DNA from: a virus
Lineage: Duplodnaviria; Caudoviricetes
Length of the DNA: 64,000 nucleotides
Virus record (IMG/VR): IMGVR_UViG_3300015608_004761
Coordinates: 35,907 to 99,906 of that record
Reading direction: 5' to 3' (one strand)
Shown: in pieces, positions 4,833 through 29,416 of the stretch
Layout of the letters: every line of letters starts with the position of its first letter
How positions within the stretch are numbered: the stretch's first letter is position 1
Notes under the pieces: model-generated
Told to the model about the DNA's origin: nothing
The model's input: the letters and a program-made list of their open reading frames with translations, nothing else
Databases searched by the model: none
Translations under genes and position numbers: made by a program

Positions 4833-4853
4833 GTTCGGGATTCCTCTCGGGGC

Positions 4854-4916
4854 AAAAAAACAGCCGTGGGAACGCGCCAGCTTCAAGCACTCCCCGGGCG
4901 CTGGCGCACCGCACGG
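4854..4916 (-). terminator. Stem-loop followed by a T7 tract downstream of the DNA polymerase gene
   Basis: Arms CCGTG..GCGCCAGC and GCTGGCGC..CACGG next to an A7 run (4854-4860) on the + strand. Confidence 0.5.
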
Positions 4917-5008
4917 GGCAGGAGACCGACCGAGCGTCTCGAACGGGTCGACCGGTGGAGGAGGAGAGCACGCGTCGGCCGCGCGTGCCAGGACATGCAC
5001 TTCTACCG

Positions 5009-8000: not shown

Positions 8001-8428
8001 GACACCACGCGCGCGATGTCCGCGAGGAGGTACGGGTTGCACATCGAGGCGGCCTTCTTATCGACCTTCTCGGACGCGCACTTCACCGCGTAGGCGTACC
8101 GTACCTGGAGATTCGGGAAGCCGTTGTCGGCTACCTCCTTGACGGCCTGACGGACGACCTTGGCGCCGTCGTCCGCCCACACGCGGTGGTGCTGACGCTC
8201 CATCTGCACCGCCTGCCCCCCGATCAGGGCGAGGCGTGGCACGGGCGGGGCGTCGGCCAGGACGATCAGCTCGGCGGTGTCGGGGCCGTCGGGGTGGGGG
8301 TAGTAGTGGGCGTCCTTGAACGAGGGGCACCCCTCGCACGATGGGCCCGCCTTGACGTTGTAGGGGGGCTGCTGGCAGAGCGGGCAGGCGGACGGTTCGA
8401 TCTGGAGGACTGGCAGTTGGGTGGCCAC
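5009..8428 (-). CDS. Family A DNA polymerase with N-terminal uracil-DNA-glycosylase-like domain and 3'-5' exonuclease (SPO1-like architecture)
   Basis: Cys-rich N-terminus with ADAP, YAVKC and CNPYL; Exo motifs SFDTET, HGKYD, YAAVDAD; motif A DAKGAE, motif B RTNIKRLVFGMLFG, motif C TVHDS. Confidence 0.9.
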   Translation of the reverse strand: MATQLPVLQIEPSACPLCQQPPYNVKAGPSCEGCPSFKDAHYYPHPDGPDTAELIVLADAPPVPRLALIGGQAVQMERQHHRVWADDGAKVVRQAVKEVADNGFPNLQVRYAYAVKCASEKVDKKAASMCNPYLLADIARVVSNRVTLGFNKRVVVLACGLPALHALGVNVRSEAEALGRAFENVRVGGVEVSVVATRSLKSYAGHVGTYQTLLADVERALRIVRDQPVARLSREQAASGYRFPQTLPEVRELIDEVIRYSRPGTDPLDWAISFDTETNTLHPQWSGLKCLGVSFAWDEGKAAFVPLWHDSTPYDGAAAWEMVKELLRSGKKLMWHHGKYDWKVLWRLGLPMTDIGRPWWDAMLAEHTLEEDKKGEYSLKALTKRFFPQFSGYEDRLKDQLEQDEEGEGEAVQVTRTKTVRVPEGVAQALKRVTEAKLVTVAFKVPTVEKMLATGLHKKQPISAEHLADLRIVLAAKAAGEFSYQQKEAEAKERKKKGGYEHVSLPELSFYAAVDADVTRRLALIQNRRMLEEDKIIARKRAVEKESLANQPPAQQGKQVFVVKELCPDPHPSHTTVRAFKLPLQRELAKIELRGVKIDKAYLTYGIEKLDQVLAVTDQQIYEVCGENFKLGAARKIASFLFEGGAGFIHPNPEHAEEIARKNPGEARYANGRMYYTPHHFTAGKQIQTSEHVLKGLVSRFECPLANLLLARKKADKARHTFFENAGKLAEMFGDDHVHGGYNQTGTVTDRLSSSSGVTGVGFNFQNMPRGFLGALRDTRGKMVLMDDGKTPVFEGVKCKKLFIPDSDDQCFFNADAKGAEVTIFGSYSEDDALNAALCDGLDAHCFFASAALNPAQVGAGKTGRDRQLALERAGVDDDHAWSYEDFFAAHTLEDKDQILEKSYVVRLKELRTNIKRLVFGMLFGAGVRKIAEIAGIPLALAQVVKDLLFSKFPSIPLYMEQTKWELRTFGLVETYHGGRRRFPIDAANAPKSLLARAERQGVNVKIQRTSSQIVLTTMCEIAPIIERDMGGHLLLTVHDSIGGQVAKKYAHQMPDLIHEYGTKKVGRDNPWLKAPYRWDLEMGSSYGTLSSAAKYLSKLPPPLPAPELDGYTEGDKFVDLRDPDDWEDSKPKSKKKAA

Positions 8429-8435
8429 GTCTACC

Positions 8436-11400
8436 TCACATGTTGAAGCTGTTGTCGTCGGGCGGGATGGCGCCGCCCTTGCCGCCCGCGAGGGCGGTCA
8501 GGTTCGCCGGGGGGCCGCTGTGGGCGACCCCGGGCGTCTTCTGCTCTCCGAAGGAGGTGCGCCGCTTGCTCACGTCCCGGACCTTGGCCACGAAGGAGCC
8601 CAGTCGCAGGACCGTGATCGTGTGCGCGTCGGCCGACAGGCCGCACGCCTGGATGAAGTTCATCACGCCGAGCTTGTCGAAGTCCGCTTGCGGGACGGCC
8701 GTGGCGTGCTGGTCGAGGAGGTGCTTCAGGCGGTGGTACTCCTGCTTGCACCAGGGCTCGGTGCGGAAGAGGGCCCCGCCGTTGGACATGGCGGCGATCC
8801 AGTCGATCACGAGGTAGCCCTGCTCGTTGTGGTAGAGCGCCCCGCACATCATGGTGTTGAGCACGGGCCACTTGTCGGGCTCCGCGAGGAGCGCCATCAC
8901 GGAGGTGTAGTTCGAGCCCATGCGCACCCCGTTGGTGCGCAGGAACGTGTCGAAGAGGATGTTCGTGGGGGTGGCGTGGGCGTAGGCGTTGAGCGACGTC
9001 TCCCGGGCGAGGGTGCAGTCGACGACGAAGTCGCGCCACTTGCCGCCGAGCAGGGCGAGCATGGTGGCGGGGCCCGCGAAGTTGCGCAGGAAGCGGGTCT
9101 CGACCTTGAAGGGCAGGTTCATGTCCGAGGTGGCCAGCTCCCGAGAGATCGACTCGAAGAGCTTCTTGTAGGCGGCGTGGAAGTGGAAGAGCCCCAGGTT
9201 CAGGGTGCGCCGTAGCTTCGCGTACTCCTCCGGCGTGACGATCTCGTGGATGGCGACGGCCGGGTCCTTGTGTCCGACCACCTTCACGAGGTCGATCTCC
9301 AGACGCCGGTTGATGTCCTGCATGTCGCGCGGCGGGTGCGTCGAGGTGGTCATGGAGTTGGTGTGGACGACGCGGACCTCGGCGACGCCGCCGACCATCC
9401 GTCGGACCTGCGCGCCGCCGGGGAAGATCGACTGCCGCAGGATCTCGATCACGTCCTCGACCTGACGGCTCTTCATCATGTGCACGCCGTCCGCCGTGAA
9501 CTCGTCGAGCGCGATCAGGCAGGTCGAGCCGTCGTAGAAGTTGTAGATGGAGGCGGCCGAGTAGTTGGACTGGTAGCTCGACCAGTCCACGAGCTTGAGC
9601 TCCGGGTGCTGGCCGCCGCTCAGGACGGACATGAGCTTGGACTTGCCGGCGCTCGTCGGGGCGGTGATCCCCGAGTTGATCTTCTCGTCGCAGAAGTGAG
9701 GCGCGCAGAGGTGGAGTGTGAGCAGGGCCATGAGCAGGGAGTCCTTGCGCCCGTGCTTGAGCCCCCAGCAGCCGTAGATCTTGACGAGCGTCTGGAGCGC
9801 CTCCTGGAGATCCTGGAGGGTCACGGAGTTGCCCCACTCCAGGTCCTCCACGCTGTGCACGACCGTGTCCAAGCCCTTGGGGTGGACCGAGAAGAGGAAC
9901 CTCCCGTCGGAGGCCCCCGTGAGCTGCTCCCACTTCACGGGCCCCTCGCCCGTGCTCACCCCCTTGAAGACGCGCCGGCCGGTGTTGACGTACTGCACCG
10001 TGTGGCCGTCGAGTTCGACCACGTGGGGCCCGAGCCCCTTGGTGTCGCACTCTGACTTGGACGGCAGGTTGTGGAAGACGCGCTGCATGGCCATGCGCGT
10101 GTAGTCGGCGAACGGCTTCTGGAGCTCGCGCATGAGCGGCGCCGCCCGGTCGGCCTTCTCGTCGTAGAGGAACGGCGGCACCCCCACCCGCTGTGTGAAG
10201 AACTGGTGCATGTCCCCGACCACGTTGGACAGGGCGCTCATGGCGGTGAAGCCGTCGTCGGCCGGGAAGCGCACGGCCCGCTCGGTCTCCTTGTGCTGGG
10301 CGTAGACCATGCTCCCCTTCACGGTCTCCTCCTTGTAGAGGAAGTGCAGGTCGTGGGCGAGCGTGTCGGCGATGCGGCTGACGAAGCCCTCCTCGTCGTC
10401 CTGGCCCTGGACGATCTGCGCCCGCACGGCGCCGGGGGCCACCCCCAGGCGCGCGGCGGCCTTGTCCAGGTAGCTCGCGAGCTGCGCCGGGTTGAGCAGG
10501 CACTCGCCGTACTTCACGGCGACGGCCGTCTTCTCGCGCGTCTCGGTGAGGTCGGCCGAGTCCTCGACGGCCCGCTCCAGGGCCCAATCGTCGCAGGCCA
10601 CGAAGGCAGCCTCGGGCTCGTCCATCGCCACCCGGCGGAAGTGGTCGAAGCCCTTCTCCCGTATCACCTCGTCGGCGTCCTTCAGGAACCCGTTGCCGTC
10701 GCGCAGGGCCCCCCAGCGGGCGAACACCCGGCACTCGATCTGTCGCGCGGTGAGGAGGCGGCTGCGCAGCCACAGCTCCCCGCGCCCCTGGTCGGGGTCG
10801 GGGTGGTCGTGTAGCAGGTACGCCGTGTCGACGCCCGCCTCCGCGAGGGCGTCCGTCGTGTTCTCCGTGCCGCAGGTGCTCACCACCCACCAGCCCGTGA
10901 GGTTCTCGCGGATGATGCCCTCGGCGATCGAGGTCATGTCGTTCTCGCCCTCGACGGCGATGAGCCGGACGCTGCGCACGTCCCGCTCGACCCCGGCCGC
11001 GTCGGGGGCGTAGAGCCCGAAGAAGCCGTGCCCCTCGTCCGGGTGGTAGGGCGCGAGCATCTTGAAGTTGCCCTGCTTGGTATTGTCGGCGTCGGGCCGA
11101 CGCAGGCGAATGCGAGCCGGGGTGGTGAAGTCGTGACCCGTCACGTACGCGACGGCCCCCACCCACTCCGGCCCCGCCGACTCGGCGAGCTTCTTCACGC
11201 GTTCGAGGATCTTGCCGCGTCTCTCCGGGGAGAAGCGCGTCGAGACGCTCTTGGCGTAGTCGTCCGTCGCCGACTTCTCCATGTGGTTCTTGCACATCTC
11301 CAGGAGGTGATCCTGGGGCGGCCATACGCCGTACGGGAGGTTCGAGACCATGTCCGGCGAGTGGCCCCGCTGCTTGAAGATCCACTCCATGGCAGGGCGG

Positions 11401-11906
11401 GCGATCTGCTGGGCCAGCGCGTCGTACGCCGTATGGTCCCATCGGTCGGCCTCCGGCGGGGAGATCATCTTGACGAGGTAGTCGTTGACGGCCCATGCCA
11501 TCACGCGCAGCGCCTCCCGGTGCTGGTCGAGGGCCTCGTAGGCCGTGCCCTGCTTCTCGGTGACGGGGCGAAACCCCGTGATCGAGTGGATGCGCGCGAG
11601 CCCCTCGGCGTAGCTCCAGCCGAGGCAGTCCTGGAGGAGCTGGAGGAGGTTGCGCGTGGTGTAGTTGCAGCTCTTGCACTGGACACGCCCCCGGAGCAGG
11701 TCCACGTAGCACGACGGGTTGTGGTCCGGGTGCGACGGGGTGGGGCAGCGCATGAGCAGGGTCTTGGCCGACACGGCCCGGACCTGGGAGTCGGGGAACG
11801 CCTGTTCGAGGAACAGGCGCATGCGCCCCGTATCCATCCGCTTGATGAGTTCGATCGCGTCGCTCTGACGCAAAGGGGTGGTGTTGGAGCCCTTCCCTCG
11901 TGCCAT
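8436..11906 (-). CDS. Primase-helicase fusion (CHC2-type Zn finger, Toprim, C-terminal P-loop ATPase)
   Basis: CPTPSH..CKSC; IAVEGEND and HDHPD; APTSAGKS and IALDE. Confidence 0.8.
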   Translation of the reverse strand: MARGKGSNTTPLRQSDAIELIKRMDTGRMRLFLEQAFPDSQVRAVSAKTLLMRCPTPSHPDHNPSCYVDLLRGRVQCKSCNYTTRNLLQLLQDCLGWSYAEGLARIHSITGFRPVTEKQGTAYEALDQHREALRVMAWAVNDYLVKMISPPEADRWDHTAYDALAQQIARPAMEWIFKQRGHSPDMVSNLPYGVWPPQDHLLEMCKNHMEKSATDDYAKSVSTRFSPERRGKILERVKKLAESAGPEWVGAVAYVTGHDFTTPARIRLRRPDADNTKQGNFKMLAPYHPDEGHGFFGLYAPDAAGVERDVRSVRLIAVEGENDMTSIAEGIIRENLTGWWVVSTCGTENTTDALAEAGVDTAYLLHDHPDPDQGRGELWLRSRLLTARQIECRVFARWGALRDGNGFLKDADEVIREKGFDHFRRVAMDEPEAAFVACDDWALERAVEDSADLTETREKTAVAVKYGECLLNPAQLASYLDKAAARLGVAPGAVRAQIVQGQDDEEGFVSRIADTLAHDLHFLYKEETVKGSMVYAQHKETERAVRFPADDGFTAMSALSNVVGDMHQFFTQRVGVPPFLYDEKADRAAPLMRELQKPFADYTRMAMQRVFHNLPSKSECDTKGLGPHVVELDGHTVQYVNTGRRVFKGVSTGEGPVKWEQLTGASDGRFLFSVHPKGLDTVVHSVEDLEWGNSVTLQDLQEALQTLVKIYGCWGLKHGRKDSLLMALLTLHLCAPHFCDEKINSGITAPTSAGKSKLMSVLSGGQHPELKLVDWSSYQSNYSAASIYNFYDGSTCLIALDEFTADGVHMMKSRQVEDVIEILRQSIFPGGAQVRRMVGGVAEVRVVHTNSMTTSTHPPRDMQDINRRLEIDLVKVVGHKDPAVAIHEIVTPEEYAKLRRTLNLGLFHFHAAYKKLFESISRELATSDMNLPFKVETRFLRNFAGPATMLALLGGKWRDFVVDCTLARETSLNAYAHATPTNILFDTFLRTNGVRMGSNYTSVMALLAEPDKWPVLNTMMCGALYHNEQGYLVIDWIAAMSNGGALFRTEPWCKQEYHRLKHLLDQHATAVPQADFDKLGVMNFIQACGLSADAHTITVLRLGSFVAKVRDVSKRRTSFGEQKTPGVAHSGPPANLTALAGGKGGAIPPDDNSFNM

Positions 11907-11932
11907 GCGCCCTCCTTTCTCGGGTCAATCTG

Positions 11933-12796
11933 TCAGGTGTTCTTGCGCCCACCCAAGCGCTTGGCCTTGCGCGCTTCGACCTCGGCGGCGCCGACCTCGC
12001 ACCGGTCCGAGTAGCCGCAGTACTCGCACTGCCAGCCGGTGGTCGCCTCGGTCTTGCCCTCCTCGATGAGGGTGAGGCTGCGTGTGAGCTTGTTGAGGTA
12101 GCCCTCCAGCCAGGGCAGCACGTGGCCCTTGATCTCGTCGCGCGTCCACGGACCCGGCTGCCCGTTCAGGCGCGGGAACCAGTCGAGGCGCGGCTCGCCG
12201 AAGTAGTTGATGGCCGACTGCACGCCCGCGACCTCCGGGAAGTTCCCGACGGCCAGGGCCATGTAGGCGTAGAACTGCGTCGCGTGCTCCTTGATGGGCT
12301 TCTTGCGGCCGGACTTGTGGTCCACCACCAGGAGCACCTTGTCTCGCGTGAGCGCCGCGTAGTCGAAGACGCCGCGAAGGATCGCGCGGCGGTTGTCGAA
12401 GAAGTCGACCCCATCGCCGTTCACGTCGATGGCGACCTTGTGTTCGATCAGCTCCATGGAGACGCCCTGCTCCTCCTTGAAGCGCTGGATGCGCGCGGTG
12501 AAGTCGAGCACCGCCGGCACCTTCGCCGTGAGCTCCCCGGCCTCCGCGTGCGTGAGCCCGTCCGCCTCGATGATCTTGGCGGCCTCGCGCCGCAGGTCGT
12601 CGGCCGAAGGCGGCATGCGGAGCGCGAGCTCCTGGAGCGTGTGCGCCGACACGCCGCCGCGCGCCTGCGTGCTCTTGCCCGCCTCGGGCAGCTTCTTCTC
12701 GTACTTGTTGTCGTATTGCTGGGCGCACAGCCCCAGCATGTTGGCCTTGGAGATCGACCACGGCCCGTGCTTGATGACCAACTCGTTGAACGCCAT
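11933..12796 (-). CDS. PD-(D/E)XK exonuclease, RecB/AddB/Cas4-like, with Fe-S cysteines
   Basis: GVFD..VVDHKSG..QFYAY; N-terminal Cys plus CEYCGYSDRC. Confidence 0.85.
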   Translation of the reverse strand: MAFNELVIKHGPWSISKANMLGLCAQQYDNKYEKKLPEAGKSTQARGGVSAHTLQELALRMPPSADDLRREAAKIIEADGLTHAEAGELTAKVPAVLDFTARIQRFKEEQGVSMELIEHKVAIDVNGDGVDFFDNRRAILRGVFDYAALTRDKVLLVVDHKSGRKKPIKEHATQFYAYMALAVGNFPEVAGVQSAINYFGEPRLDWFPRLNGQPGPWTRDEIKGHVLPWLEGYLNKLTRSLTLIEEGKTEATTGWQCEYCGYSDRCEVGAAEVEARKAKRLGGRKNT

Positions 12797-12825
12797 GTTT
12801 TGCCTCGCAAACGAAGAGACGCCGA

Positions 12826-12875
12826 AGGGCGCCGGGGGCCCCGTAGCGCAAGCGCCACAAGGTCCCCGACGCCCT
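12826..12875 (-). other. Intergenic imperfect stem-loop of about 15 bp (possible terminator or processing site)
   Basis: AGGGCGCCGGGG.. and ..CCCCGACGCCCT inverted repeat between two minus-strand genes. Confidence 0.35.
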
Positions 12876-12886
12876 CCGTCGGTCGA

Positions 12887-14176
12887 TCACATGTTCTGGT
12901 TGGCGAGGTTGGTGAGGTTCGCGGGGGGCTCGCCGCCCGACCCACCCATGAGCGCCCCGAAGTCCGCCTCGCCCGAGGGCTTCTCCGCACCGCCCGTGAG
13001 GATCTTCAGGTGGATGCGGCGCTTCTCGAGCCAGTAGTACTCGGTGTCGATCTTGCGGCAGATCAGCGAGAGGAACTTGGCCTCGGCCTCGGTCGGCGCC
13101 GCACTCCGCATCACGTCGTGGGTCACGAGGAACCAGCGGCGCGAGGCGTCCTTCGGATCGGTCTCCTTCTTCGTGGAGATCGCGAAGGCGTAGTCCCAGA
13201 GGTACCGCCAGCCCGCCGAGTACGCCTTGCGGATCGCGCGGCCGGGCTTGGTGTTGGTGCCCGAGAGCACCATGCGGTAGATGCCGCTGAAGTCGCGCGG
13301 CACGAAGTACAGGTGCACCTCGTTGCGGCACGCGTTCTTGTTCGGCCGGTTGTCCTTGAACGGACGCTCGGGGCAGGCCGCGCACGCGCCGAACTTGTCG
13401 CCCATGATCTGGTCGATCGAGCGGCAGATGGGCGCCTTGCTCTTGGGCTCGTCACCGTCGGACGCCTTCGCGTCCTTCGCGTCACCGTCCTCGCCGCGCG
13501 GCGGCCAGAACGTGTTGACCTCGTAGCCCGCGATCACGAAGCCCTCGAAGCGCTCGGGCACGCGCACGTCGCCGCGCGAGAGCGCCTCGGCTGAGTCACG
13601 GTCGCAGGCCGCGAGGATGGTGCCGTCGGTGCCGTAGATGCCGCCCGTGGGGGTCATCTTGGGGCGCGACGAGTCGTCGCCCGTGCCGTGGTAGATGCGG
13701 GCCTCGAACATCTGGAGGCCCTGGCGCTTCTTGCCATGGTCGCCGGGCTTGATCGGGTTCATGCGCTCCAGCGCCAGCGCGAAGTTCTTCGCCTTCGCGG
13801 GGTCGAGGTCCTTCAGGACCTCGCGGATCTCCTCGTCGAGCACCGGCTTGTAGACCTGCCGGAGGTAGCGCTCGTCGTCGGGGAACAGCGCCACCAGCCG
13901 GTCGCAGGCGTCCGGGTCGGTGGGGCTGAAAGGGGTGTCGAGGGTCTCGCCCTTGGGCTTGTCGAGACCCGCCTCCTGCACCGTGGCGAGGGCCACAGGG
14001 GCGGCAGGCTCGGCCGGGGCGGCCGTCGGTTCGGCGGCCGGAGCCGTCGCAGGGGTCGAGTCCTCCATCGCGGACTCGGTAGCGGTGGTGGCCTCGGCCT
14101 CGGCGACCGGCGGGTCGGCGGGGGTGTTGGCGGTGGTGGGGGTGGTGTTGCTGGTGTTCTTGTTCGGCTTGGACAT
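12887..14176 (-). CDS. Putative ssDNA-binding/annealing protein with a Cys cluster
   Basis: AAGGAG RBS; PICRSID..CAACP..NAC motif; next to the exonuclease in the replication block. Confidence 0.45.
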   Translation of the reverse strand: MSKPNKNTSNTTPTTANTPADPPVAEAEATTATESAMEDSTPATAPAAEPTAAPAEPAAPVALATVQEAGLDKPKGETLDTPFSPTDPDACDRLVALFPDDERYLRQVYKPVLDEEIREVLKDLDPAKAKNFALALERMNPIKPGDHGKKRQGLQMFEARIYHGTGDDSSRPKMTPTGGIYGTDGTILAACDRDSAEALSRGDVRVPERFEGFVIAGYEVNTFWPPRGEDGDAKDAKASDGDEPKSKAPICRSIDQIMGDKFGACAACPERPFKDNRPNKNACRNEVHLYFVPRDFSGIYRMVLSGTNTKPGRAIRKAYSAGWRYLWDYAFAISTKKETDPKDASRRWFLVTHDVMRSAAPTEAEAKFLSLICRKIDTEYYWLEKRRIHLKILTGGAEKPSGEADFGALMGGSGGEPPANLTNLANQNM

Positions 14177-14242
14177 GTTTGGTGTTGCTCCTTAGGGGAG
14201 TCCGCACGACGCGGAAGGGAGAAGAGTGTATATCTCAGCCAT

Positions 14243-15010
14243 ATGAGGGATACAACGTCGCGATACTTCGATGAAGTCAGTCGATTGGAGCTGCCAACGC
14301 AGGCCCAGGAGCGGGCCGGGCTCCTCGACTACTGGCAACTTACGCAGGCCCACGAGCGTGAGACTGACCCCTCCAAGCGCGAGCAGATCGCCCGGCAGCG
14401 CGCCCGGAGGGGCCAGAAGATCGCGGAGGGCTACTTGCGGTTCGTCATCGGGAAGGCACGCGACCGGACACGTGACGAGGACCTCCTTCTGGACTTCATC
14501 GGAGCCGGGAACGAGGGCTTGATGATCGCGATCACCAAGTTCGACCCGGCGTACGACGTACGCTTCCTCACCTACGCCGCCCCGTGGGTGAGGGTGAAGA
14601 TGGACGAGGTGGCTCACCGCCTCGGGACGGTGCACGTCTCGGTCCACCAAAGAAAGCAGTGCATCCAGCGGGGCGAGGAGCCCCCCACGGCCACCCTGAC
14701 GCACGTCGATGACGTGCAACTGGTGTCCCCCTCGGACGTCGAGAGGGAGGCCGTGCCCGAGGGCCGGACGGCGCTCAAGTACCTGAAGCTGACGGGGCTC
14801 TCGCGGCGCGAGCGCGTGATCCTGGTCCTGTCGCTGGGCCTGCGGGGTGACCCGCAGGGCGACGAGGACCTCGCCCTCACGCTCTACTCGCTCGACGGGT
14901 CGATCTTCTGCGCCCCCGAGCTGCGCCGGATCCGCGAGGAGGCGCTGGGGAAAATGCGGCGCTGGGCCGGCGAACACCCCGACGAGGAGATGTTCGCCGA
15001 GCTCAGCTAG
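14243..15010 (+). CDS. Phage sigma70-family sigma factor
   Basis: Region 1.2-like SRYFDEVSRLEL; region 2 YLRFVIGKA..DFIGAGNEGLMIAITKFDP..RFLTYAAPWVR; region 4-like LSRRERVIL..RRIREEALGKMR. Confidence 0.85.
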   Translation: MRDTTSRYFDEVSRLELPTQAQERAGLLDYWQLTQAHERETDPSKREQIARQRARRGQKIAEGYLRFVIGKARDRTRDEDLLLDFIGAGNEGLMIAITKFDPAYDVRFLTYAAPWVRVKMDEVAHRLGTVHVSVHQRKQCIQRGEEPPTATLTHVDDVQLVSPSDVEREAVPEGRTALKYLKLTGLSRRERVILVLSLGLRGDPQGDEDLALTLYSLDGSIFCAPELRRIREEALGKMRRWAGEHPDEEMFAELS

Positions 15011-15013
15011 GGG

Positions 15014-16120
15014 TCAGTCGGCTGACGAGTCCTCGTCGTCGAGGAGCGCCGCCTTCGGCAGCTCCTTGATGCCGGCGGCCTCCTCGTGGCCCCGGAGGCG
15101 GCCCTTCTCGAAGGCGATCTTCTCGGGGTCGGCGTCGCGGGCGCGCAGGTTCTTCACCCGGGTGTCGATCCAGTTGAGGACCTTGCGCTGGTTGATGACG
15201 CCGACGTGCTTCACCTCGACCTTGTCGTAGCCGTGCTGCTTGGGCACCCGCTTGACCGGCTCGCCGCCCTCGCCCGCCCCCGCCTCGGCCTTGGCCGCCT
15301 GCTTGGCCTGCCACGCCTTGACGGCCTCCTTGAGCTGGTCCTCGTCCCAGCCCTTCTCGACGGCGCGGTTGGCGATGGCCGTCTGCGCGTCGTGGTCCTT
15401 GATCGGGCGCAGGGCGCGCGCCGCCGTGACGGTGAGCAGCCCGTCGCGCACGAGCTTCAGGACCGGCTCGGCGAGGTCGAAGATGCCGAGGTACTGGCTC
15501 ACCTTGCCGGGCGACCAGCCGACGCGGCTGGCGATCTGGTCCTGGAGCAGCCCCGAGTCCTTGAGGTTCTTCACTACGACGGCGCTGTCGTAGTGGGTCA
15601 TGCCGGCGCGCGCCTCGTTCTCGAAGTAGGCGTCCTGCACCATCTCGGACCAGTGAGTGTAGTTCTTCACCTTGGCGTTGATGGTCGAGAACTTGTTGAT
15701 GAGCGCGGCGCGCGTGCGGCGGCGGCCGAAGACCAGGACGTAGTAGTCCTCGCCCTTCTTGACGTTCACCCGCAGCTTCGGGTCGGCCGACACCGGCAGC
15801 GACGCGGTCTCGCCCACGTAGCGCATCTTGGTGACGAGCACCGGGGAGGTGATGCCGCCCTTGGTCTGCTCGACGAACTCGTCGATGCTCTGCGAGGTGC
15901 TGCGCACGTCGAAGATCACCAGGAGCTGCTGGGGCTTCACGTCGATCGGCCCCTCCTCGTCAGGCACCGGCTCCCAGTCCTTGAAGACGGCGGCGTAGCC
16001 CGCCTTCTCCTCAGACGCGGCGGACCCGGACGCGGCGGACTTCTTGGCCCGCTTGGACGGCGTCTCCACCGTCTCGTCCTTCTTCTTGCCCTTCTTCTCG
16101 GTCGTATCTTCGGTCGTCAT
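15014..16120 (-). CDS. parB: ParB/Spo0J/KorB-like protein (ParB N-domain plus HTH)
   Basis: YVLVFGRRRTRAA (GxxRxxA-type CTP box), ENEAR, HTH QDQIASRVGWSPGKVSQYL. Confidence 0.85.
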   Translation of the reverse strand: MTTEDTTEKKGKKKDETVETPSKRAKKSAASGSAASEEKAGYAAVFKDWEPVPDEEGPIDVKPQQLLVIFDVRSTSQSIDEFVEQTKGGITSPVLVTKMRYVGETASLPVSADPKLRVNVKKGEDYYVLVFGRRRTRAALINKFSTINAKVKNYTHWSEMVQDAYFENEARAGMTHYDSAVVVKNLKDSGLLQDQIASRVGWSPGKVSQYLGIFDLAEPVLKLVRDGLLTVTAARALRPIKDHDAQTAIANRAVEKGWDEDQLKEAVKAWQAKQAAKAEAGAGEGGEPVKRVPKQHGYDKVEVKHVGVINQRKVLNWIDTRVKNLRARDADPEKIAFEKGRLRGHEEAAGIKELPKAALLDDEDSSAD

Positions 16121-16355
16121 GATCGACTCCTTCCCGCTCCGCGCAGGACAGTTGGTTCAGCTCGCCGCGCAGAATCCGGCGGACCTCGCGCGCGAACTGG
16201 ATGGGGGACACGGACTTCAGGGGCACCGCTTCGAGCGGGCCCCCGACCACGAGGTGCCGGAAAGCCTCGTAGAACTCCTTGGCCACGAGCGCCTCGCTCT
16301 GGGGCGCCACGTAGAGATCCAAAAACAACGAAACGACGATGGCCCTGAACTTCAC
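16011..16355 (-). CDS. Hypothetical protein
   Basis: GTGA coupling with the upstream gene, but overlaps the parB start by about 110 nt. Confidence 0.35.
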   Translation of the reverse strand: MKFRAIVVSLFLDLYVAPQSEALVAKEFYEAFRHLVVGGPLEAVPLKSVSPIQFAREVRRILRGELNQLSCAEREGVDHDDRRYDREEGQEEGRDGGDAVQAGQEVRRVRVRRV

Positions 16356-16579
16356 CGGGTCGGCGAAGAGGTGCTGCTCCCTGGCGGCGCCTCGAAAGGC
16401 GCGGTCCCGCAGTTCGCGCAGCGAACCGATGAGCACTGAGACGTCGGCGGAAGGATCGGACCTCGACACTTTGGGCATGTCGGCGGTTCTGCCACGCCCT
16501 CCGTACGCCGTAAAGCGGACGAAGCGGAGGCTTCTACCCGCTTGTCCTCGATATTCGTGACGACGCCGTACTTCTCCAC
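16352..16579 (-). CDS. Small zinc-ribbon protein
   Basis: CPKC..CANCGT; GGAG RBS. Confidence 0.6.
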   Translation of the reverse strand: MEKYGVVTNIEDKRVEASASSALRRTEGVAEPPTCPKCRGPILPPTSQCSSVRCANCGTAPFEAPPGSSTSSPTR

Positions 16580-16580
16580 G

Positions 16581-17111
16581 TCACTCTCCCGTCAGGTACT
16601 TGTCGAGGAAGCTCTTCTCCTCGGACGCTGCCGTGCCCGCCTCGCCCCGCCGGGCGGCCTCGGCCTCGGCGTAGCCGGGGTCGACGCGGCCGAACTCCCG
16701 CTCGACCAGACCCGTGCGGGTGCCGATCTCGCGGATGGCGACCTGACGGGGCTTCTCCAGGTCGGAGATCTCGATCGGATCGGTCAAGGGGTTCCCGCGC
16801 GCGTTCCCGCTCGACCACTTGGTGACGATGGCGCGCCCCGTGGGGCGGTCGGCGGGCGCCGGGGGCGCGGGAGGGGCCGGCGCGGGGGCCGGGGCGAAGG
16901 CCGTCGCAGACGGCGCCGGGGCGGGGGGCGCGGACGGGGCGGGAGGGGGCGGGGCAGGCCGCGCCGCCGGCCTCGGGTCGTCCACCCAGAGGTAGATCGT
17001 GCAGTTGTCGGGGACCTCGAAGTCCAGCAATACGCCGTACCCCCTCTGCTGGAGGTCCTGCTGGATCAGGGCCTTGACGTCCTCGGGACCGTACTGAACT
17101 TGCAGCTTCAT
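16581..17111 (-). CDS. Hypothetical protein with a Pro/Ala-rich linker
   Basis: Coupled to the SNF2 gene (4-nt overlap). Confidence 0.65.
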   Translation of the reverse strand: MKLQVQYGPEDVKALIQQDLQQRGYGVLLDFEVPDNCTIYLWVDDPRPAARPAPPPPAPSAPPAPAPSATAFAPAPAPAPPAPPAPADRPTGRAIVTKWSSGNARGNPLTDPIEISDLEKPRQVAIREIGTRTGLVEREFGRVDPGYAEAEAARRGEAGTAASEEKSFLDKYLTGE

Positions 17112-19111
17112 AGCAGGCTCGGCTTTGCTACGGGGCGGTTCACTGCCGCCGCGTAGGTGCAGTTCTCCCGGAAGGGGACCGTGCCGTCAAGGGCGCACGC
17201 TTCCATGCGCGGGCAGGAGGCGCATCGGATCTTCTCGGTCATCGTGAAGGCGACCCGGTCCTTGAACCGGAGCACGCCGGCCACCATCCGGTCGAGCCCC
17301 CCGAGCCCCTCGGCGGTCAGGAGCCGGTAGCAGGTCATCTTGCGCTTCTGGCCGGGCCGGTTGTTCCTCTCGATGGCCTGCTGGTAGTCGAGCGGTGCCC
17401 ACGGCAGCGAGTAGAACACCGAGTAGTTGGCGGCGGGCAGGTTGATGCCGATCCCGGCGCTCACCATCCCGACGAGCACGCGCGTCTTGGGGTCCTCTTG
17501 CACCGCGAGCTCGATCCGCTCGACGTCCTTGGTCGTGTCCCCGTCCAGGCGCTCGACCTTGACCCCGAGCTCGGCGCACACGCCCATCATGTCGTCCAGC
17601 TCGTCGTCGAAGACCCCCCAGCACAGGACCTTGTTGGTGTCGTCCTCCTCCAGGATCTGTTCGAGGAGGTCCTTGAACACCTCCCGCTTGGGGTTCTCGA
17701 AGTCGCGCAGGACCTTGCGCGGGGGCTTCTGCTGCACGACGAGGCACTTCTTGGTGTAGGGCTTGATCCGCTCCTCCACGCACACCTCCATGCGCGGGCA
17801 GGCGTCGCAGATGGTCCGGTCGGGCGCCTCGATGAGGAAGCCGGAGATCACCTGGAGGAGCTTGTTCACCAGGGCGGCCCCGTGGGGCAGGTTGAAGAGG
17901 ACCTGCGCCGGGGGCGGCGCGAGGCCCGGCTCGGGGTTGTCGTCGAAGTGCGCGGCGTACGCCTCCAGCGCGGGGTCGAGCGTAGCCTGCATGGTTGATA
18001 CGAGCTCGTTGTAGCGGTGCTTCTGCCGGGTCCCGAGCTCGAAGGGCACGTCCACCACGGTCATGGCCGGCAGGTCCAGGCAGTCCTTCTTCTTCATCCG
18101 CAGCGCAACCGAGTCGACGATCGCGTTCATCTCGTTCAGGTTCTTGTAGCCCGTGCGGATCACGGCGTTGTACGGGGAGCGCGTGACGTACTTGTCGACG
18201 AACTTCTCGTAGTCCATCGGGACGAGGGCGGGCGAGAGGAAGTAGAGCTGTCCGTAGAGCTTCTCGGGCGTGTCGCCCGGCGTGCCGGTTAGCGCGATGC
18301 GGCGCGGCGCGGGCACCGACAGGGCCACCACGGCCTGCGTCTGTTCGCTCTTCCAGTTGCCCAGGCGGTGCGACTCGTCGGCCACGATCACGTCGTAGCC
18401 GAGCTCCAGGAGGCGGCTCCGCTCGGGGGCGAAGATCGCCATCTTGCCGAACTGCGGGTGCTCGATCTCGGTGTTCGCCATGAGGCGCGCGCGGGCGTAG
18501 CTCACCCCCACGACCTGGGCCGACTTGGCGGCCTCCCAGGACTCCTCGGTCCCGTCGAAGTAGACGCCCTTCCACTCCCCGCGCGACACGCGCCCCGTCT
18601 CGCGCGCCCAGCCGGGGAGCACGACCGGGGGCCCGACGACGAGGGCCTTCTTGAAGGGGGCCTCGCGGGCGATCACGCGGAGGGCGTCGAGCGTCGTGCG
18701 CGTCTTGCCCGTGCCCATGTCCCACAGGAGGAACGTCCGGGCCCAGTGCCGGATGCGCGATACGCCGTACCGCTGGTACTTGAAAGGCTGGAAGGTGTCG
18801 GGGAAGAACTCGCCCGGCACGTCCGCGAGGCACGGCTCCCCCCTCGCCCAGGCGGCCTCCTCCGATTCCCAGGCGCGGTCCTTAGCCTCGATATCGGCCG
18901 CAAGCGCCAGGGCGTCCGGCGTCCAGCGCGCGCCCACGGCCAGCTTGCGCAGGTCCCGCATTGCCCACAGGCCGAATGGGTAGTACCCGGGGAAGATCCA
19001 GGTGCCGCTGACGTACTGGGCGCCCCACGCGCGGGCGAGCGGGGACTTCTCGGGGCCGGGCGACGCGAACGCGCGTGCCGTATTGTTGAGCGTGAACGAC
19101 CTGATCTCCAT
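17108..19111 (-). CDS. SNF2-family SF2 helicase
   Basis: DMGTGKT, ADESH, LTGTP, AGIGINL, QAIERNNRPGQ. Confidence 0.9.
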   Translation of the reverse strand: MEIRSFTLNNTARAFASPGPEKSPLARAWGAQYVSGTWIFPGYYPFGLWAMRDLRKLAVGARWTPDALALAADIEAKDRAWESEEAAWARGEPCLADVPGEFFPDTFQPFKYQRYGVSRIRHWARTFLLWDMGTGKTRTTLDALRVIAREAPFKKALVVGPPVVLPGWARETGRVSRGEWKGVYFDGTEESWEAAKSAQVVGVSYARARLMANTEIEHPQFGKMAIFAPERSRLLELGYDVIVADESHRLGNWKSEQTQAVVALSVPAPRRIALTGTPGDTPEKLYGQLYFLSPALVPMDYEKFVDKYVTRSPYNAVIRTGYKNLNEMNAIVDSVALRMKKKDCLDLPAMTVVDVPFELGTRQKHRYNELVSTMQATLDPALEAYAAHFDDNPEPGLAPPPAQVLFNLPHGAALVNKLLQVISGFLIEAPDRTICDACPRMEVCVEERIKPYTKKCLVVQQKPPRKVLRDFENPKREVFKDLLEQILEEDDTNKVLCWGVFDDELDDMMGVCAELGVKVERLDGDTTKDVERIELAVQEDPKTRVLVGMVSAGIGINLPAANYSVFYSLPWAPLDYQQAIERNNRPGQKRKMTCYRLLTAEGLGGLDRMVAGVLRFKDRVAFTMTEKIRCASCPRMEACALDGTVPFRENCTYAAAVNRPVAKPSLL

Positions 19112-19131
19112 GGGCTCCTCCGAAGGGTGAC

Positions 19132-20850
19132 ATGTACGAACTAGACGCGATGGGGCCGTACCAGAACGGCGGCGGCGCCTACGGGCACCCGAACCCCCAG
19201 TACGACTACCTGAGCGGGTTCACGCCCAGGAAGCTCAAGGACCTGATCCGGCAAGCCGAGTACATCGGCTTCAACTCGGCGCACATCTACGGCGTCGTCC
19301 GCAAGTTCGGCGAGTACCCCATCACGGAGCTGGAGTACGAGACGGCCTCGGACTCCGAGCGCGAGCGGCACGAGAAGCTCTTCGACAACGAGCTGCGCTT
19401 CAAGGGGTTCCTCACGCTGGTCTCCTTCGATGTGTGGCTCACGGGCAACAGCTTCGTGAGCATGTACGAGCCGATCAAGCGGGACCTGCGGTGTCCGTCC
19501 TGCAAGATCCCCGAGGACGTCGCGGCGGCGGACTACACCTTCCACCTGGACCGCCTGGAGTTCCGGTTCAACTGCCGCAACTGCGGTCTGCGCAACCAGA
19601 TCGCCGAGGTCGTCGACCAGCCACTGCGCGAGCCGAGCCGCATCAAGCTCCGACGCTGGGACCCGAAGCTCATCGACATCGACTCGAACCTCATCACCGG
19701 GGAGGACGAGTACTACTACACGATCCCGCGCGCCTTCGTCGCCGAGGTTCGCGCGGGCAACAAGCTGAAGATCAACCACACGCCGATGGAGTTCCTCGCG
19801 GCGATGAGGGACCGGAAGATCTTCAAGTTCGCCCCCGACGCCATCTACCACATGCGTATGCCGGGCCCGGCCGGGGAGCAGGGCCAGTGGGGCTTCCCTC
19901 CCATCACGGCGGCCATCAAGCTCTTCCTCTTCGCGGCCGTGCTCAGGCGCGCCAACGAGGCGATCGCCATGGAGCACATCACGCCCTTCCGCGTGATGCA
20001 CCCCACGCAAGCGAGCAGCCAGGGCGACCCGCTCACGACCATCAACCTCGGGCGCTGGCGGCAGGAGCTGGAAGGGAACCTCCGCGCCTTCCGCAAGGAC
20101 CCCCTGCGCGTCATGTTCTCCCCGATCCCCATCGGCGTGCAGAACATCGGCGGCGAGGGACGCACCCTCCTGACGCTCGGCGAGCTGGAGCAGGCCGAGA
20201 AGAACATCGTCCTCTCGCTCGGCGTCCCGATGGAGTTCCTCACCGGGGGCCTCGGGCAGACGCGCGGCGACGTGACGCTCCGCATGATCGAGAACCAGCT
20301 CCGTACCCACATCGAGAACCTGAACGGGCTCGCGCAGTGGACCGAGCGGCGCGCGGCGGGGTTCCTCAAGTGGGCCTCGATCCCCGTGCGCCTCCAAGAC
20401 TTCAAGATGACGGACGACGTGGACGCCAAGCAGTTCCGTCTCCAGATGTGGACGCAAGGGAGGGTGAGCGACACGACGATGGCGCAGTCGCTCAACATGG
20501 ACCTCAAGAACGAGATGAAGCTCATCAAGCAGGAGCAGCTCGACCGCCAGCGCAACGAGAGCGAGACCCAGCTCGCCCTCCAGCGCCAACAGCAGGCCCT
20601 GTCGCTCACCTCGCAGCAGCGCGCCATGCAGGCGCAGGGCGGCGTGGCCTACGACCCGCAGCAGGTGCTGGCCGCCAACGCCCCCATCGCCCAGGAGCTC
20701 GGCGAGATGGACGAGGGCACCCGCCGGAGCCGCCTCGACGCCTTGCAGGGCGAGGACCCGGTCGCGTACGCTGTTGTCAAGATGCTCCTCGAACAGAAGC
20801 AACAGAACGACACGGCGCAGGCCAAGCAGCAGTCGCGAGGGGGTGGGTGA
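19132..20850 (+). CDS. Portal protein with an inserted CxxC..CxxC zinc ribbon
   Basis: Size; portal-like segments KFGEYPI, GNSFV, RWDPKLI, WGFPP, IVLSLGVPMEFL; Q-rich C-terminus. Confidence 0.65.
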   Translation: MYELDAMGPYQNGGGAYGHPNPQYDYLSGFTPRKLKDLIRQAEYIGFNSAHIYGVVRKFGEYPITELEYETASDSERERHEKLFDNELRFKGFLTLVSFDVWLTGNSFVSMYEPIKRDLRCPSCKIPEDVAAADYTFHLDRLEFRFNCRNCGLRNQIAEVVDQPLREPSRIKLRRWDPKLIDIDSNLITGEDEYYYTIPRAFVAEVRAGNKLKINHTPMEFLAAMRDRKIFKFAPDAIYHMRMPGPAGEQGQWGFPPITAAIKLFLFAAVLRRANEAIAMEHITPFRVMHPTQASSQGDPLTTINLGRWRQELEGNLRAFRKDPLRVMFSPIPIGVQNIGGEGRTLLTLGELEQAEKNIVLSLGVPMEFLTGGLGQTRGDVTLRMIENQLRTHIENLNGLAQWTERRAAGFLKWASIPVRLQDFKMTDDVDAKQFRLQMWTQGRVSDTTMAQSLNMDLKNEMKLIKQEQLDRQRNESETQLALQRQQQALSLTSQQRAMQAQGGVAYDPQQVLAANAPIAQELGEMDEGTRRSRLDALQGEDPVAYAVVKMLLEQKQQNDTAQAKQQSRGGG

Positions 20851-21209
20851 TGGCCGACCCGTGGGCAGAGCACGAGGGCTTCCGGGGCCCCAACGTCAAC
20901 ACCGTCAAGCCCGGCCGGGTGCACTACGACACGTTCGTCGTCTTCCGCCCCTACTACCTGTGCCCCGCCTGCAAGAAGGTGATGGCGCAGGACGACTTCC
21001 AGTACCCCGAGGACGACGACTACGTCTGTCCGCACGTCCGCCGGAGCGCGCTGGAGAAGATCATGGACAAGGTGATCGCCGGCACCGCGCAGAAGTTCTC
21101 GATGGACCAGCTCGTCATGGAGAGCGGCGTCGTCCAGGTCACGCTCGTCTGGGCGGACGTCGATCGGCCAAAGGAGGAAGGAGGGTGGTCGAGGCCCAGC
21201 CACATGTGA
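20850..21209 (+). CDS. Hypothetical protein (CxxC..CPH)
   Basis: TGATG coupling to the portal gene. Confidence 0.65.
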   Translation: MADPWAEHEGFRGPNVNTVKPGRVHYDTFVVFRPYYLCPACKKVMAQDDFQYPEDDDYVCPHVRRSALEKIMDKVIAGTAQKFSMDQLVMESGVVQVTLVWADVDRPKEEGGWSRPSHM

Positions 21210-21333
21210 TGGCTGGGCCCCGGTCACCGGTTGGTGTCGTCGTCAGAGGATGACGACGATGACGAACTTGAGCACGCTGGTCAGTACCATGCGCACCTCC
21301 TTCCGCATCCTTGTACCCTAACGAGAGCCCATT

Positions 21334-24300
21334 ATGAGCGAGCCGACGCCCATCCTCACCGACGCCTCCCACATCCGCGAGCGGATTCGGGAGAAAGCGA
21401 TCCAGACCGCGTACGCCGTATTCCCCCTGGAGGCCCAGGGGCGGAAGCTGGAGATCGAGGATGTCCACGTCCGCAACGAGCGTTACAGCCCGGTGCGAGA
21501 GGCGCGCGCGCTCATGACCGACGGGACGCTGTCCGAGGCGATGCGCGGGACGCTCGTTCTGCGCGACAAGGACGGCACGGTGCTCGACCGGGCCAAGAAC
21601 TTCACCATCGCGCACCTGCCGTACTTCACCGACCGCCACACGGTGATCGCGAACGGCAACGAGTACCAGATCGCGAACCAGCTCCGCAGGAAGCCCGGGG
21701 TCTACACGGCGCGCGCGGACAACGGGGAGCTCCGGGCCATCTTCAACCTGGGCCGTGGGAAGAACTTCGACCTCGGGTTCGAGCCCAACAAGGGCACCTT
21801 CCACCTCGCCTACGGCACGAGCAACATCCCGCTTTACCCAGTGCTGCGGGCGCTGGGCGTCTCACACCAGACGATCGCCGACCAGTGGGGAAAGGGTGTC
21901 GCGGACGCGAACCACACCGCCCACGGCCATCAGACCGAGAAGGCCGTGGCGAGTCTCTACGCCAAGGTCGAGCACCCGGTGGTGATGAACCCGAACCTGC
22001 CGCACGCCGAGAAGGTGACGGCGCTCCAGAGGAAGTACGACCAATCGACGCTCGACCCGCGCGTGACCGAGGCGACGCTCGGGGTGGCCTGGGATAAGGT
22101 GACGCCGCAGGCGCTCATCGGTGCGGCCAAGAAGGTGCTGGCCGTCCACAACGACAAGGCGCAGGTCGACGACACCGACTCGCTCACCTTCAAGACTTTC
22201 CACTCGATCGACGACTTCATCGCCGAGCGCATGCGCCTGACGGCCCGCGCGTGGGTCCCCGCCGCCAAGCGCGCCTTGAACGGCAAGACCAACATCCGCG
22301 AAGCCCTGCGCCCGGCGCCCTTTTCGGACGGGCTGCGCAAGTGGGTCACGACCTCGTCGCTCTCGGCCGTGCCAACGGGCATCAACCCGCTGGAGATGCT
22401 CGACCACGCCGTCAAGGTGACCTCGCTCGGCGAGGGCGGGATCCCCAGCGATCGCGCGATCCCGCTGGACGCGCGCATGATCCACAACACACACATCGGC
22501 GCGCTCGACCCGATTCGCACGCCGGAGTCGAACCATTCCGGGGTCGACATCCGGGCGACCCTGGCCGCGCACCGCGACAAGGAGGGCAACCTCTACACCG
22601 TCGTCAAGAACGTCAAGACCGGCAAGGAGGAGTTCCTCCGGTCGGGCGAGCTGCGCAAGCACGTCCTGGCCTTCCCCGGCGAGGACCTGCGCGGGCACGT
22701 GGACGCCTTCGTCGGCGGCAAGGTCGAGCGGGTGCCCGGTGATAAGGTCACCCACCAGCTCCTGCACACCGCCCACACCTACTCGCCCGCGACGACGCTG
22801 ATCCCCATGATCCACTCGATCCAAGGCAACCGCGCCATCATGGGGTCCAAGATGGGCACCCAGGCGCTGCCGCTGCTGGAGCGCGAGGCGCCGTACGTCC
22901 AGGTCCGCTCGCACCTGCCGGGCGGAGAGAGCTTCGAGACCGTCTACGGCCACATGTTCGTGCCGCGCGCGACGGTGAGCGGGACGGTGAAGAAGATCGA
23001 GGACGGCTGGATCTACATCAAGCCGGACAAGGAGCACGAGAAGAAGTCCGAAGTTCGCCGTGAGGATGACGACGTCGACGCGGACGGGGTGAAGGTCGCC
23101 GCCGAGGACGACGGGCTCGTCAAGGTGCCCTACCAGACGCTCTTCCCGTTCCCCTCCAAGACCTACCTGCACCACGAGCTCTCGGTGAAGCCGGGCGACA
23201 AGGTGCAGGAGGGTCAGCGCCTGGGCGAGTCGAACTACACCCGCAAAGGCACCCTCGCCCTCGGCAAGAATCTGCTCGTGGCCTACATGCCGTACTACGG
23301 CCTGAACTCCAACGACGCCGTCGTGATCTCGGAGGGTTGCGCGAAGAAGCTGACCTCTGAGCACATGTACCGCGAGGTCTACGCGCTGAACCCGCAGATC
23401 GAGCTCTCGCGCGAGAAGCACCGGATGTACTTCGGCAACAAGTACACCCGCGAGCAGTACGGCGTACTCGACGAGACGGGCGTCGTGAAGAAGGGCTCGC
23501 GAGTCCACCCGAAGGACCTCCTGGTCGCCGGGCTCACCAAGACCCAGGTGCTGGGCACGGACGCGCTCCTCGGGCGCATCTCCAAGAGCCTCGCCAAGCC
23601 CTACCAGGAGGTGACGCTCTCCTGGACCCACGGCACCCCGGGCGAGGTCGTGGACGTGGTGCGCACGGCCACGCAGATCGCCATCCTCGTGCGCACCCAC
23701 GAGCAGATGCAGGTCGGCGACAAGCTCTGCTACGACGAGCAGACGGAGGTTCTAACCGACCACGGGTGGAAGCACTTCGACTTGCTGGACCCCTTGACGG
23801 ATCGTGTGGCGAGCCTTGAAGGCGGGGCCCTCCGTTACGTGGAACCCGAAGCGTACCATCGGTACGCGCGCGGGGGTCGCATGTACGCCGTCTCGTCGCA
23901 ACAGCTCGACCTGTTCGTAACGGACCACCACGGGATGTACGTTCAGCGGCGCGGCGAGACCGAGTTCGCCTTGCGGCCGGCGGAAGACATCGCCGGCCAG
24001 CGGGTTCGATACAAGAAGGACGCGGACTGGCAGGGCGAGACGCCCGACCACGTGGTCTTCCCTTCGCTCACCGTCGCCGCAGGGCAGGGGGGGCGTGGGT
24101 CTCGCGTGCTGACCCCGCTGCGCATGCGAACGGACGCCTACGCCATGCTGCTGGGCGCGTACCTGTCGGAGGGGAACCTCGTCGATCAACCCGAGAGCGG
24201 CAGCTACGGGATCGACATCACGCAGATCAAGGAGCCCAACCGGGCGCGACTGCTCACGGAGCTCCGCCGCCTGGGGCTCAAGTTCAACGAGCACGGGCGC

Positions 24301-26910: not shown

Positions 26911-27385
26911 CTTCCCTGCCGACATCGACGGAATGCTGAAGGCCGCCGAGGACCCGGAGCCGGAGCCCGACCCCGTGCCGGGCCTCGTGCGCAAGCTCCT
27001 CTCCGTCAAGTACGCCGTACTGCTGGCGTACGTGAGCTACGGCGACCAGCTCCGGGGCGCGAACCGCGACGGGCTCTACGAGCACTTCCAGGAGCACGTG
27101 AAGGACGAGCGCCGCTCGATCTACGAGTTGAACCGTCACCTCGCCTCGCGGGGGGAGGTGCACGTGCCGCACAACGTCACCATCCCCGAGGTCGAGCTCG
27201 GGGGCCCGGTGCCGCTCCTCGGCGTGCTCCTCCAGTTCGAGGAGGCCGCCCTCGAAGCGTGGCGCGAGCTCTTCCGCGCGATCCCGCCGAACAAGAACGT
27301 GGGGCTCTCGGGCTTCGCGCAGAACGGCGCGCAAGCCCAGCTCGCCCACGTCGAGGACCTGCGTCGCTGGGGGGCCCGGTCGTGA
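26903..27385 (+). CDS. Ferritin/Dps-like four-helix-bundle protein
   Basis: FQEHVKDERR, EEAALEAW, HVEDL pattern. Confidence 0.55.
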   Translation: MDDFPADIDGMLKAAEDPEPEPDPVPGLVRKLLSVKYAVLLAYVSYGDQLRGANRDGLYEHFQEHVKDERRSIYELNRHLASRGEVHVPHNVTIPEVELGGPVPLLGVLLQFEEAALEAWRELFRAIPPNKNVGLSGFAQNGAQAQLAHVEDLRRWGARS

Positions 27386-29396: not shown

Positions 29397-29416
29397 CGTT
29401 AGGCTTGTCCCGAGCC

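Follow-up and report, generated by a model that had tools for sequence, protein, structure and literature searches.

We analysed a 64,000-nucleotide stretch of DNA (hereafter the window) that makes up the right-hand 64 kb of the 99,906-bp IMG/VR contig IMGVR_UViG_3300015608_004761 (CheckV completeness 58%), from an uncultured wastewater virus of the Caudoviricetes. Within it lies an orphan gene of the ParB family, which is preceded by a small reading frame, orfU, and runs convergently into a sigma-70-family gene, and the contig that carries these genes is dotted with a short odd-length palindrome, RTACGNCGTAY, at regular intervals that we refer to as the lattice. Our comparison of this locus with its relatives points to ParB, through its helix-turn-helix (HTH), as the best candidate for the protein that reads the palindrome, an assignment that we consider probable while leaving appreciable room for doubt. 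The ParB gene and its principal motifs were found at the following positions.

15014..16120, minus strand: orphan ParB-family gene encoding 368 aa, from the open reading frame (ORF) call, profile matches and predicted fold
15704..15727, minus strand: GRRRTRAA phosphate-binding box, residues 132-139, counterpart of the canonical GERRxRAA, from the sequence
15608..15622, minus strand: ENEAR, residues 167-171, counterpart of the ParB ENxxR box III, with E167, N168 and R171 conserved
15476..15544, minus strand: HTH with recognition helix (...SPGKVSQYLGIFD), aligning to the Spo0J and Noc HTH

The 368-aa protein is a member of the ParB/Spo0J superfamily, with a profile match above a curated cut-off (NCBIfam TIGR00180 parB_part, 61.6 bits against 58.45) and with the fold and motifs of that superfamily. 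Pfam HTH_ParB (PF17762) matches residues 183-270 (E 6e-14, 52.5 bits, cut-off 22.6), four PHROG ParB-like families are also matched, and among PDB sequences Spo0J, Noc and ParB chains align from the arginine box through the HTH. The protein consists of a disordered Lys/Glu-rich N-terminal tail (residues 1-39), an NTP-binding domain, the HTH DNA-binding domain and a helical C-terminal domain, for which an AlphaFold2 model built from 30 family members (mean predicted local distance difference test, pLDDT, 84.9) gives a confident helical hairpin at residues 308-348 with no PF23552 match. A Foldseek search with this model found that all 31 of the 31 matches listed at E<=0.001 were ParB, Noc, Spo0J or KorB chains, KorB 8qa9 among them. 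The best of these were CTP/CDP-bound ParB, Noc and KorB, led by CDP/CTP-bound ParB, and the alignments to ParB, Noc and KorB structures spanned 217-241 columns including the nucleotide-binding domain (NBD). The Noc equivalog TIGR04285 was not reached (61.1 bits, cut-off 315) and no KorB-specific Pfam family was matched at E<=0.01. The start of the protein (MTT...) is conserved in homologs and is preceded at 6 nt by a ribosome-binding site, GGAAGGAG.

The DVR (box I Arg), GRRR and ENxxR motifs are conserved among homologs, and the V-S-Q of the HTH is kept across the ParB family. The earlier note on this DNA had described a ParB-type gene with an arginine box and an HTH, which the profiles, motifs and fold bear out, with the qualification that an Arg stands in place of the Glu of the canonical GERR. 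G132, R133, R134 and R135 do not vary within the closest clade, and G-R-x-R is retained in the wider family. KorB also has no GERR glutamate, yet it works as a CTPase clamp over a distance of 1.5 kb (PMC11790492).

No other word in the contig comes near the over-representation of the nine-letter palindrome TACGNCGTA, which has 44 copies against ~0.3 expected, 28 of them in the window. The over-representation described in the earlier note is equally plain for the individual forms, with RTACGSCGTAY counted 21 times in the window against 0.01 expected, TACGSCGTA 23 times against 0.07 and TACGWCGTA 5 times against 0.04. Position -5 is a purine in 98% of half-sites.

973..62596, no strand: 28 TACGNCGTA lattice copies in the window, by word search
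Lattice starts 1-10: 973, 2260, 5711, 7488, 11325, 11425, 14552, 16504, 17031, 18761
Lattice starts 11-20: 21412, 23458, 27011, 29447, 32645, 32832, 36706, 37878, 40635, 41536
Lattice starts 21-28: 44117, 46534, 48125, 50272, 53930, 56798, 59901, 62588
14552..14560, no strand: A/T-centred lattice site inside the sigma gene; L005 and L006 have a site at the same position, there with C as the centre

The 44 contig sites are spaced at a mean of 2,283 bp and far more evenly than chance would place them: the coefficient of variation (CV) is 0.44 against a null of 0.96+-0.13, a value equalled in none of 5,000 simulations, and no two neighboring sites are more than 3,874 bp apart, where the null gives a mean largest gap of 9,650 bp. 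Coding sequence holds 38 of the 44 (86%); all three frames are used, Tyr-x-Val being the favored reading, and the intragenic share across the genomes compared is 65%-86%. Most intragenic sites (e.g. 23458, 27011, 29447, 32832) are read as Tyr-(Ala/Gly)-Val; at ~95% G+C third positions this reading forces the rare codon GTA, so that the sites carry a visible coding cost. Of 10 sites compared between this phage and the related loci L005 and L006, which have 79% nucleotide identity to it, 7 stand at the same position, and the centre base changes freely. The site at 18761-18769 is lost in L005/L006, where a new site is found 22 bp away. Such turnover with local compensation suggests selection for spacing rather than for exact position. 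Since 7 of 10 sites are kept, the centre is free and the lost site is replaced nearby, purifying selection acts on the DNA itself for the presence and spacing of sites.

ParB-based scans of IMG/VR and JGI metagenomes returned only 73%-identical relatives or nothing, and we therefore anchored the comparison on the neighboring SNF2 helicase. Alignment of SNF2 helicase homologs gave 78 IMG/VR loci with helicase identities from 67% to 22%. A ParB-family profile identified a ParB ORF in 43 of the 78, always 1-5 kb downstream of the helicase and in the fixed order orfU(+), ParB(+), sigma(-), p429, exonuclease, primase; the ParB homologs P0004-P0016 are 42-50% identical. The loci without a ParB either end just past the helicase or belong to distant phages (22-26% helicase identity). 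No relative was found in 185,579 prokaryote (GTDB) genomes. When we searched 50,697 phage records by tblastn with this ParB and with two members of its family, the only hits were to generic ParBs, those of Listeria, Staphylococcus, cyanophages and gut phages. The relatives look to be large and virulent phages, of 172-191 kb and from wastewater. Their over-represented odd palindromes are the following.

RTACGNCGTAY: this phage, G001, G002 and G003
(T)TTACGNCGTAA(A): G004 and many loci
TTTCACGNCGTGAAA: G005, L019 and L021
TTCAC-N3-GTGAA: L027
TTTAC-N3-GTAAA: L039 group and L023
TTTCC-N3-GGAAA: L025
TTAACCNGGTTAA: G006

All of these clade motifs take the form TTxAC-N3-GTxAA or a close derivative of it. 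Whole-genome counts reach 90 sites in G002 (complete, 187 kb), 63 in G004, 46 in G005 and 36 in G006, and spacing is more even than chance in the complete G002, G004 and G006 and in the 76%-complete G005 (CV 0.53-0.68, P<=0.002). The co-occurrence of this ParB clade with an over-represented palindrome, proposed as a check in the earlier note, was thus found across relatives with the motif changing from clade to clade. That note had named motif-bearing relatives without ParB as a refuting case. Among the helicase-anchored loci we found none with a family-type lattice that demonstrably lacks ParB, and the ParB-less lattice loci all end just after the helicase, so that they do not reach the place of ParB.

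The half-sites of the relatives offer a link to characterized ParB sites. TTTCAC and TTTCC are inner parts of parS (TGTTTCAC) and of the Noc-binding site (NBS; TATTTCCC) as described in PMC7383237. The outermost specific base, half-site position 1, is linked to position 173 of Caulobacter ParB; parS-specific variants have an invariable R173, and Noc Q173 was shown directly to recognize adenine 1 (PMC7383237). The phage ParB family never has Arg at position 204, the equivalent of R173, and the family motifs are without that outer base.

Upstream of ParB the locus continues with orfU and two short elements.

16011..16478, minus strand: orfU, a small conserved helical protein with an acidic C-terminal tail, directly upstream of ParB
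16504..16512, no strand: copy of the lattice palindrome 26 nt before orfU begins, a candidate operator for orfU-parB, by word search
16531..16539, minus strand: GGGTAGAAG, promoter-like word upstream of orfU-parB, sequence confirmed

L005 and L006 have the operon site of 16504 at the same position but with the centre base flipped, and TTTACG[GC]CGTA stands at the equivalent place, ~30 nt upstream of the orfU start, in many clades. Homologs of orfU (~100-155 aa) immediately precede ParB in ~40 relatives, usually overlapping parB, and in this clade the orfU frame extends 110 nt into the ParB gene. We found no significant Pfam or PHROG match for orfU (best Pfam E 0.034), no Atlas lead >=0.9, no PDB sequence match and no Foldseek match at E<=0.001; with VIA-align only generic helical matches appeared, with no HTH or recognizable fold. 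An identity with the RNA polymerase omega subunit was considered on account of nine weak Foldseek rows (E 2-4) and set aside, as PF01192 found nothing in seven genomes. The predicted orfU-ParB complex scored 0.00, which weighs neither for nor against binding. ParB is our best candidate reader because the family-wide pairing, the parS-like half-sites, the matching loss of the residue at position 204 and the operon site come together.

Several observations weigh against this assignment. The co-occurrence and the change of motif are confounded by shared descent, and other conserved DNA-binding proteins would co-vary with the palindrome just as well. The RTACG of this phage is not parS-like by itself, so that the link to parS passes through the relatives, and the 3-bp spacer is unlike every characterized ParB site. 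Pfam ParB_N gives only 15.7 bits, under its cut-off of 26.3. The covariation of HTH residues with the motif that the earlier note had asked about yielded no simple residue-to-base code: position 204 is P, S or A where a purine is preferred at -5 and mostly E or D where T is preferred, a pattern without independent replicates. Finally, 16 of 42 ParB-positive loci fall below our strict lattice threshold (p<1e-5 in ~22 kb). Some 7 of these 16 carry the family motif at p 2e-5 to 3e-4, and the lattice of L024 is visible only in the whole genome, G006; in L026, L046, L048-L051 and L054 no lattice was detected in ~22 kb.

The deep-branching loci L046, L048-L052, L054 and L056 have VAQ, VNQ, IGQ or INQ for VSQ in the recognition helix and no standard lattice in ~22 kb. 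L052 and L056 show a weak TGTA-N-TACA signal, and L048 retains AGTACGGCGTAGA upstream of orfU.

A different reader altogether, such as another dimeric DNA-binding protein, a T5-like nickase, a primase or replication-restart factor or a host protein, with ParB serving some unrelated role, strikes us as a minor but real possibility. The evidence joining ParB to the sites is entirely comparative, the 2-3 kb spacing is also about the length of an Okazaki fragment, odd palindromes this short and with an N centre look like nuclease recognition sites, and many proteins of these phages are without annotation. However, the half-sites of the relatives are parS- or NBS-like, the site is conserved at the parB operon, and ParB is the only ParB/HTH-type reader that we found and is always present where the region is covered. 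Nor did modification enzymes emerge as users of the palindrome: no N6/N4 (PF01555) or C5 (PF00145) methyltransferase was found in seven genomes, four of them complete. A search for Tet/JBP (PF12851) in the seven genomes also returned nothing, but its control was detected in no genome, so that absence of this family is not established. A ParB-activated thymine dioxygenase system has been described whose ParBs have no DNA-binding domain (PMC13229309); we dropped this reading for the present ParB, which has one. Of the earlier note's interpretation, the part in which ParB reads the lattice has indirect support, from the pairing of ParB with an evenly spaced palindrome in relatives and from their half-sites.

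If ParB does read the palindromes, its dimers would load at each of them as nucleotide-gated clamps, by analogy with ParB, Noc and KorB, and the closed clamps would slide from the sites into the DNA on either side. Sites come every ~2.3 kb and are never more than 3.9 kb apart, so the entire viral chromosome could be marked or coated in this way; coverage of the whole chromosome at 2-2.5 kb spacing is plausible because the KorB clamp reaches >1.5 kb. The spacing of the sites suggests a clamp travel of ~1-2 kb. The site just upstream of orfU-parB would in addition allow autoregulation. The purpose is probably global, namely organizing, marking or silencing phage DNA during infection, rather than partition of the plasmid type.

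In mechanism, the system that comes closest is KorB and its OB sites on the IncP plasmid RK2. Both have the ParB fold and HTH without the GERR Glu, both are associated with odd palindromes with a free central base (13-bp OB operators for KorB), and in both the sites are dispersed with one at the protein's own operon; action over kilobases is known for KorB (PMC11790492) and would apply here by analogy. However, KorB partners ParA (IncC) and KorA, whereas no ParA and no recognizable KorA were found here, and we count 44 evenly spaced and mostly intragenic sites per 100-kb contig (90 in the complete 187-kb relative). On RK2 itself the OB sites number about a dozen, and most of them are at promoters. 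It is conceivable, though rather unlikely in our judgment, that ParB is a global silencer of the KorB/KorA type that slides, stalls at promoters with a small partner (possibly orfU) and represses genes including its own operon. The dispersed palindromes with a free centre resemble OB sites, a lattice site lies between the promoter-like word and orfU-parB, orfU is always just upstream of parB, and the mechanism has been described for KorB (PMC11790492). Nevertheless, orfU has no HTH, no second operator-type motif was found paired with the lattice, and one mostly intragenic site per 2.3 kb is far beyond what promoter control would need.

To serve partition, the lattice would have to act as the centromere of a plasmid-like prophage or carrier state, with ParA encoded elsewhere or by the host. 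P1 and N15 ParB proteins do serve partition, and N15 has separate centromere sites, IR1-4 (PMC7205306). However, a search for ParA (PF13614, PF01656) found none in the 99,906-bp contig, in G001 or in four complete relatives, three of which carry direct terminal repeats, while the controls were detected in 14 of 14 genomes; the earlier note's remark that the window has no ParA can thus be extended to the whole contig and to these relatives. The ParA-binding motif [LFI]G[KR]G[LFI] (PMC12704722) was present in 0 of 43 ParBs. Accordingly, neither the ParA ATPase partner nor the ParA-binding motif of canonical ParABS systems was found, the family has no relative in the prokaryote genomes searched, and partition has no need of 44-90 evenly spaced sites. 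We regard a classical partition role as very improbable.

On its other side the ParB gene meets the sigma gene.

14243..15010, plus strand: sigma-70-family gene, convergent with ParB (Pfam Sigma70_r2, E 1e-7)
15011..15013, no strand: 3-nt gap between the two stop codons, read TAG-GGG-TCA (sigma stop TAG, ParB stop TGA)

The stop codons confirm that the two genes are convergent and 3 nt apart, as the earlier note had stated, and in all relatives (L007-L062 junctions compared) the ParB and sigma stops are 2-10 nt apart. A terminator does not fit into so short a gap, which means that transcription of each unit must run on into the other, and the tight junction could be a conserved regulatory switch. 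Neither a sigma-70-type promoter nor a convincing terminator was found around the pair. Pfam finds only region 2 in the sigma protein, and by eye we recognize a region-4-like C-terminal segment (...LSRRERVILVLSLGL...RRIREEALGKMRR). Because of this segment the protein is not a -10-only sigma like T4 gp55, and the earlier note's idea that ParB controls sigma-dependent promoters, in the manner of T4, finds no specific support here.

The position of the sigma gene nevertheless raises the idea that ParB clamps on the lattice are mobile co-factors of the adjacent sigma or of the phage RNA polymerase and license late transcription, much as the T4 gp45 clamp acts with gp55 and gp33. The convergent pair is kept in ~40 relatives, down to 28% helicase identity, and a lattice site lies within 60 bp of the promoter-like word GGGTRNAAG in 5 of 27 copies against ~1.5 expected. 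However, the module from helicase to primase is syntenic as a whole, so that the adjacency of ParB and sigma carries no specific weight; 65%-86% of sites (86% in this contig) are intragenic rather than at promoters; and the region-4-like segment is unlike T4 gp55. We therefore find coupling to sigma improbable. Equally speculative is a ParB 'chromatin', in which a clamp-coated chromosome would be read by the transcription machinery of the phage (a multisubunit RNA polymerase, the adjacent sigma and perhaps orfU). If true, it would distinguish phage DNA and time its expression, a ParB-based counterpart of the clamp-coupled late transcription of T4.

ParB proteins are known as centromere binders and also as Noc, KorB and VirB. 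Compared with ParB/Spo0J-parS and Noc-NBS (PMC7383237), the present protein finds its best sequence and structure matches there, with the NBD motifs and HTH in common, and Noc is likewise an orphan ParB with many dispersed sites. However, parS and NBS are even palindromes of 16 bp whose half-sites directly adjoin, whereas the half-sites here are 3 bp apart and the R173 equivalent is absent; site density is also far higher here, and in a virus. Orphan ParBs are common on mobile elements and mostly without a known role (survey, PMC12704722). The orphan ParB of this phage has a natural quantitative read-out in dozens of even, selected and mostly intragenic sites that change in step between clades. 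The lattice makes the travel distance of a clamp, the evolution of HTH specificity and the gain to a lytic virus from marking all of its DNA open to test, and the phage family offers orthogonal ParB/site pairs for DNA labeling.

The nearest published case among phages, and the only one we found in which tens of palindromes with a 3-bp spacer are spread over the genome, is that of the Cluster O mycobacteriophages such as Corndog, which have a 17-bp repeat, TGTTCGG-N3-CCGAACA, and an orphan ParB-like protein, gp90; the authors leave the function of the repeat open and do not name gp90 as its reader (PMC4351075). We confirmed 34 copies of the 7-N3-7 repeat in Corndog (L121), and gp90 aligns to the present ParB family over the NBD and HTH with an hhalign probability of 98.4% (E 7e-15). 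The two systems share tens of palindromes with a 3-bp spacer across the genome, partly intragenic, and an orphan ParB-like protein with no ParA and no lysogeny. In the Corndog record (53800-56600) a repeat lies 26 nt upstream of the small gene 91, which overlaps the ParB-like gene 90 by 4 nt, and this layout mirrors that of site, orfU and ParB. However, the Corndog repeats are uneven, with few on the left and intervals of ~300 bp at the right end, their centre is AAA or TTT rather than free, and gp91 is not detectably related to orfU. The earlier note knew of no described phage example of such a system. Our literature search found no published link between a phage ParB and a genome-wide lattice, so that this part stands, but the Cluster O repeats and their orphan ParB-like protein (PMC4351075) are a precedent for the components. 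If ParB does read the lattice, the same reading would explain these published repeats.

Two other systems also place phage-encoded DNA-binding proteins on many scattered genome sites, namely N15 SopB on IR1-4 and the stoperators of Cluster A mycobacteriophages. N15 differs in having SopA, only four sites and a plasmid prophage. Ravin and colleagues (J Bacteriol 2008) are said to have found that N15 Sop affects late gene expression. The Cluster A stoperators have an asymmetric sequence, follow the direction of transcription and are sites for an immunity repressor, not for a ParB (PMC4351075).

Beyond the lattice, a second over-represented contig word, CCTGCGCAAG (core CTGCGCAA), occurs in 11-16 copies against ~1-2 expected and is unrelated to the palindrome. 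Upstream of the window, at contig coordinates 337 and 9373, two lattice sites lie in extended hairpins (CCCCGTACGCCGTACGGGG) that belong to a duplicated cassette also bearing GGGTAAAAG ~45 nt away.

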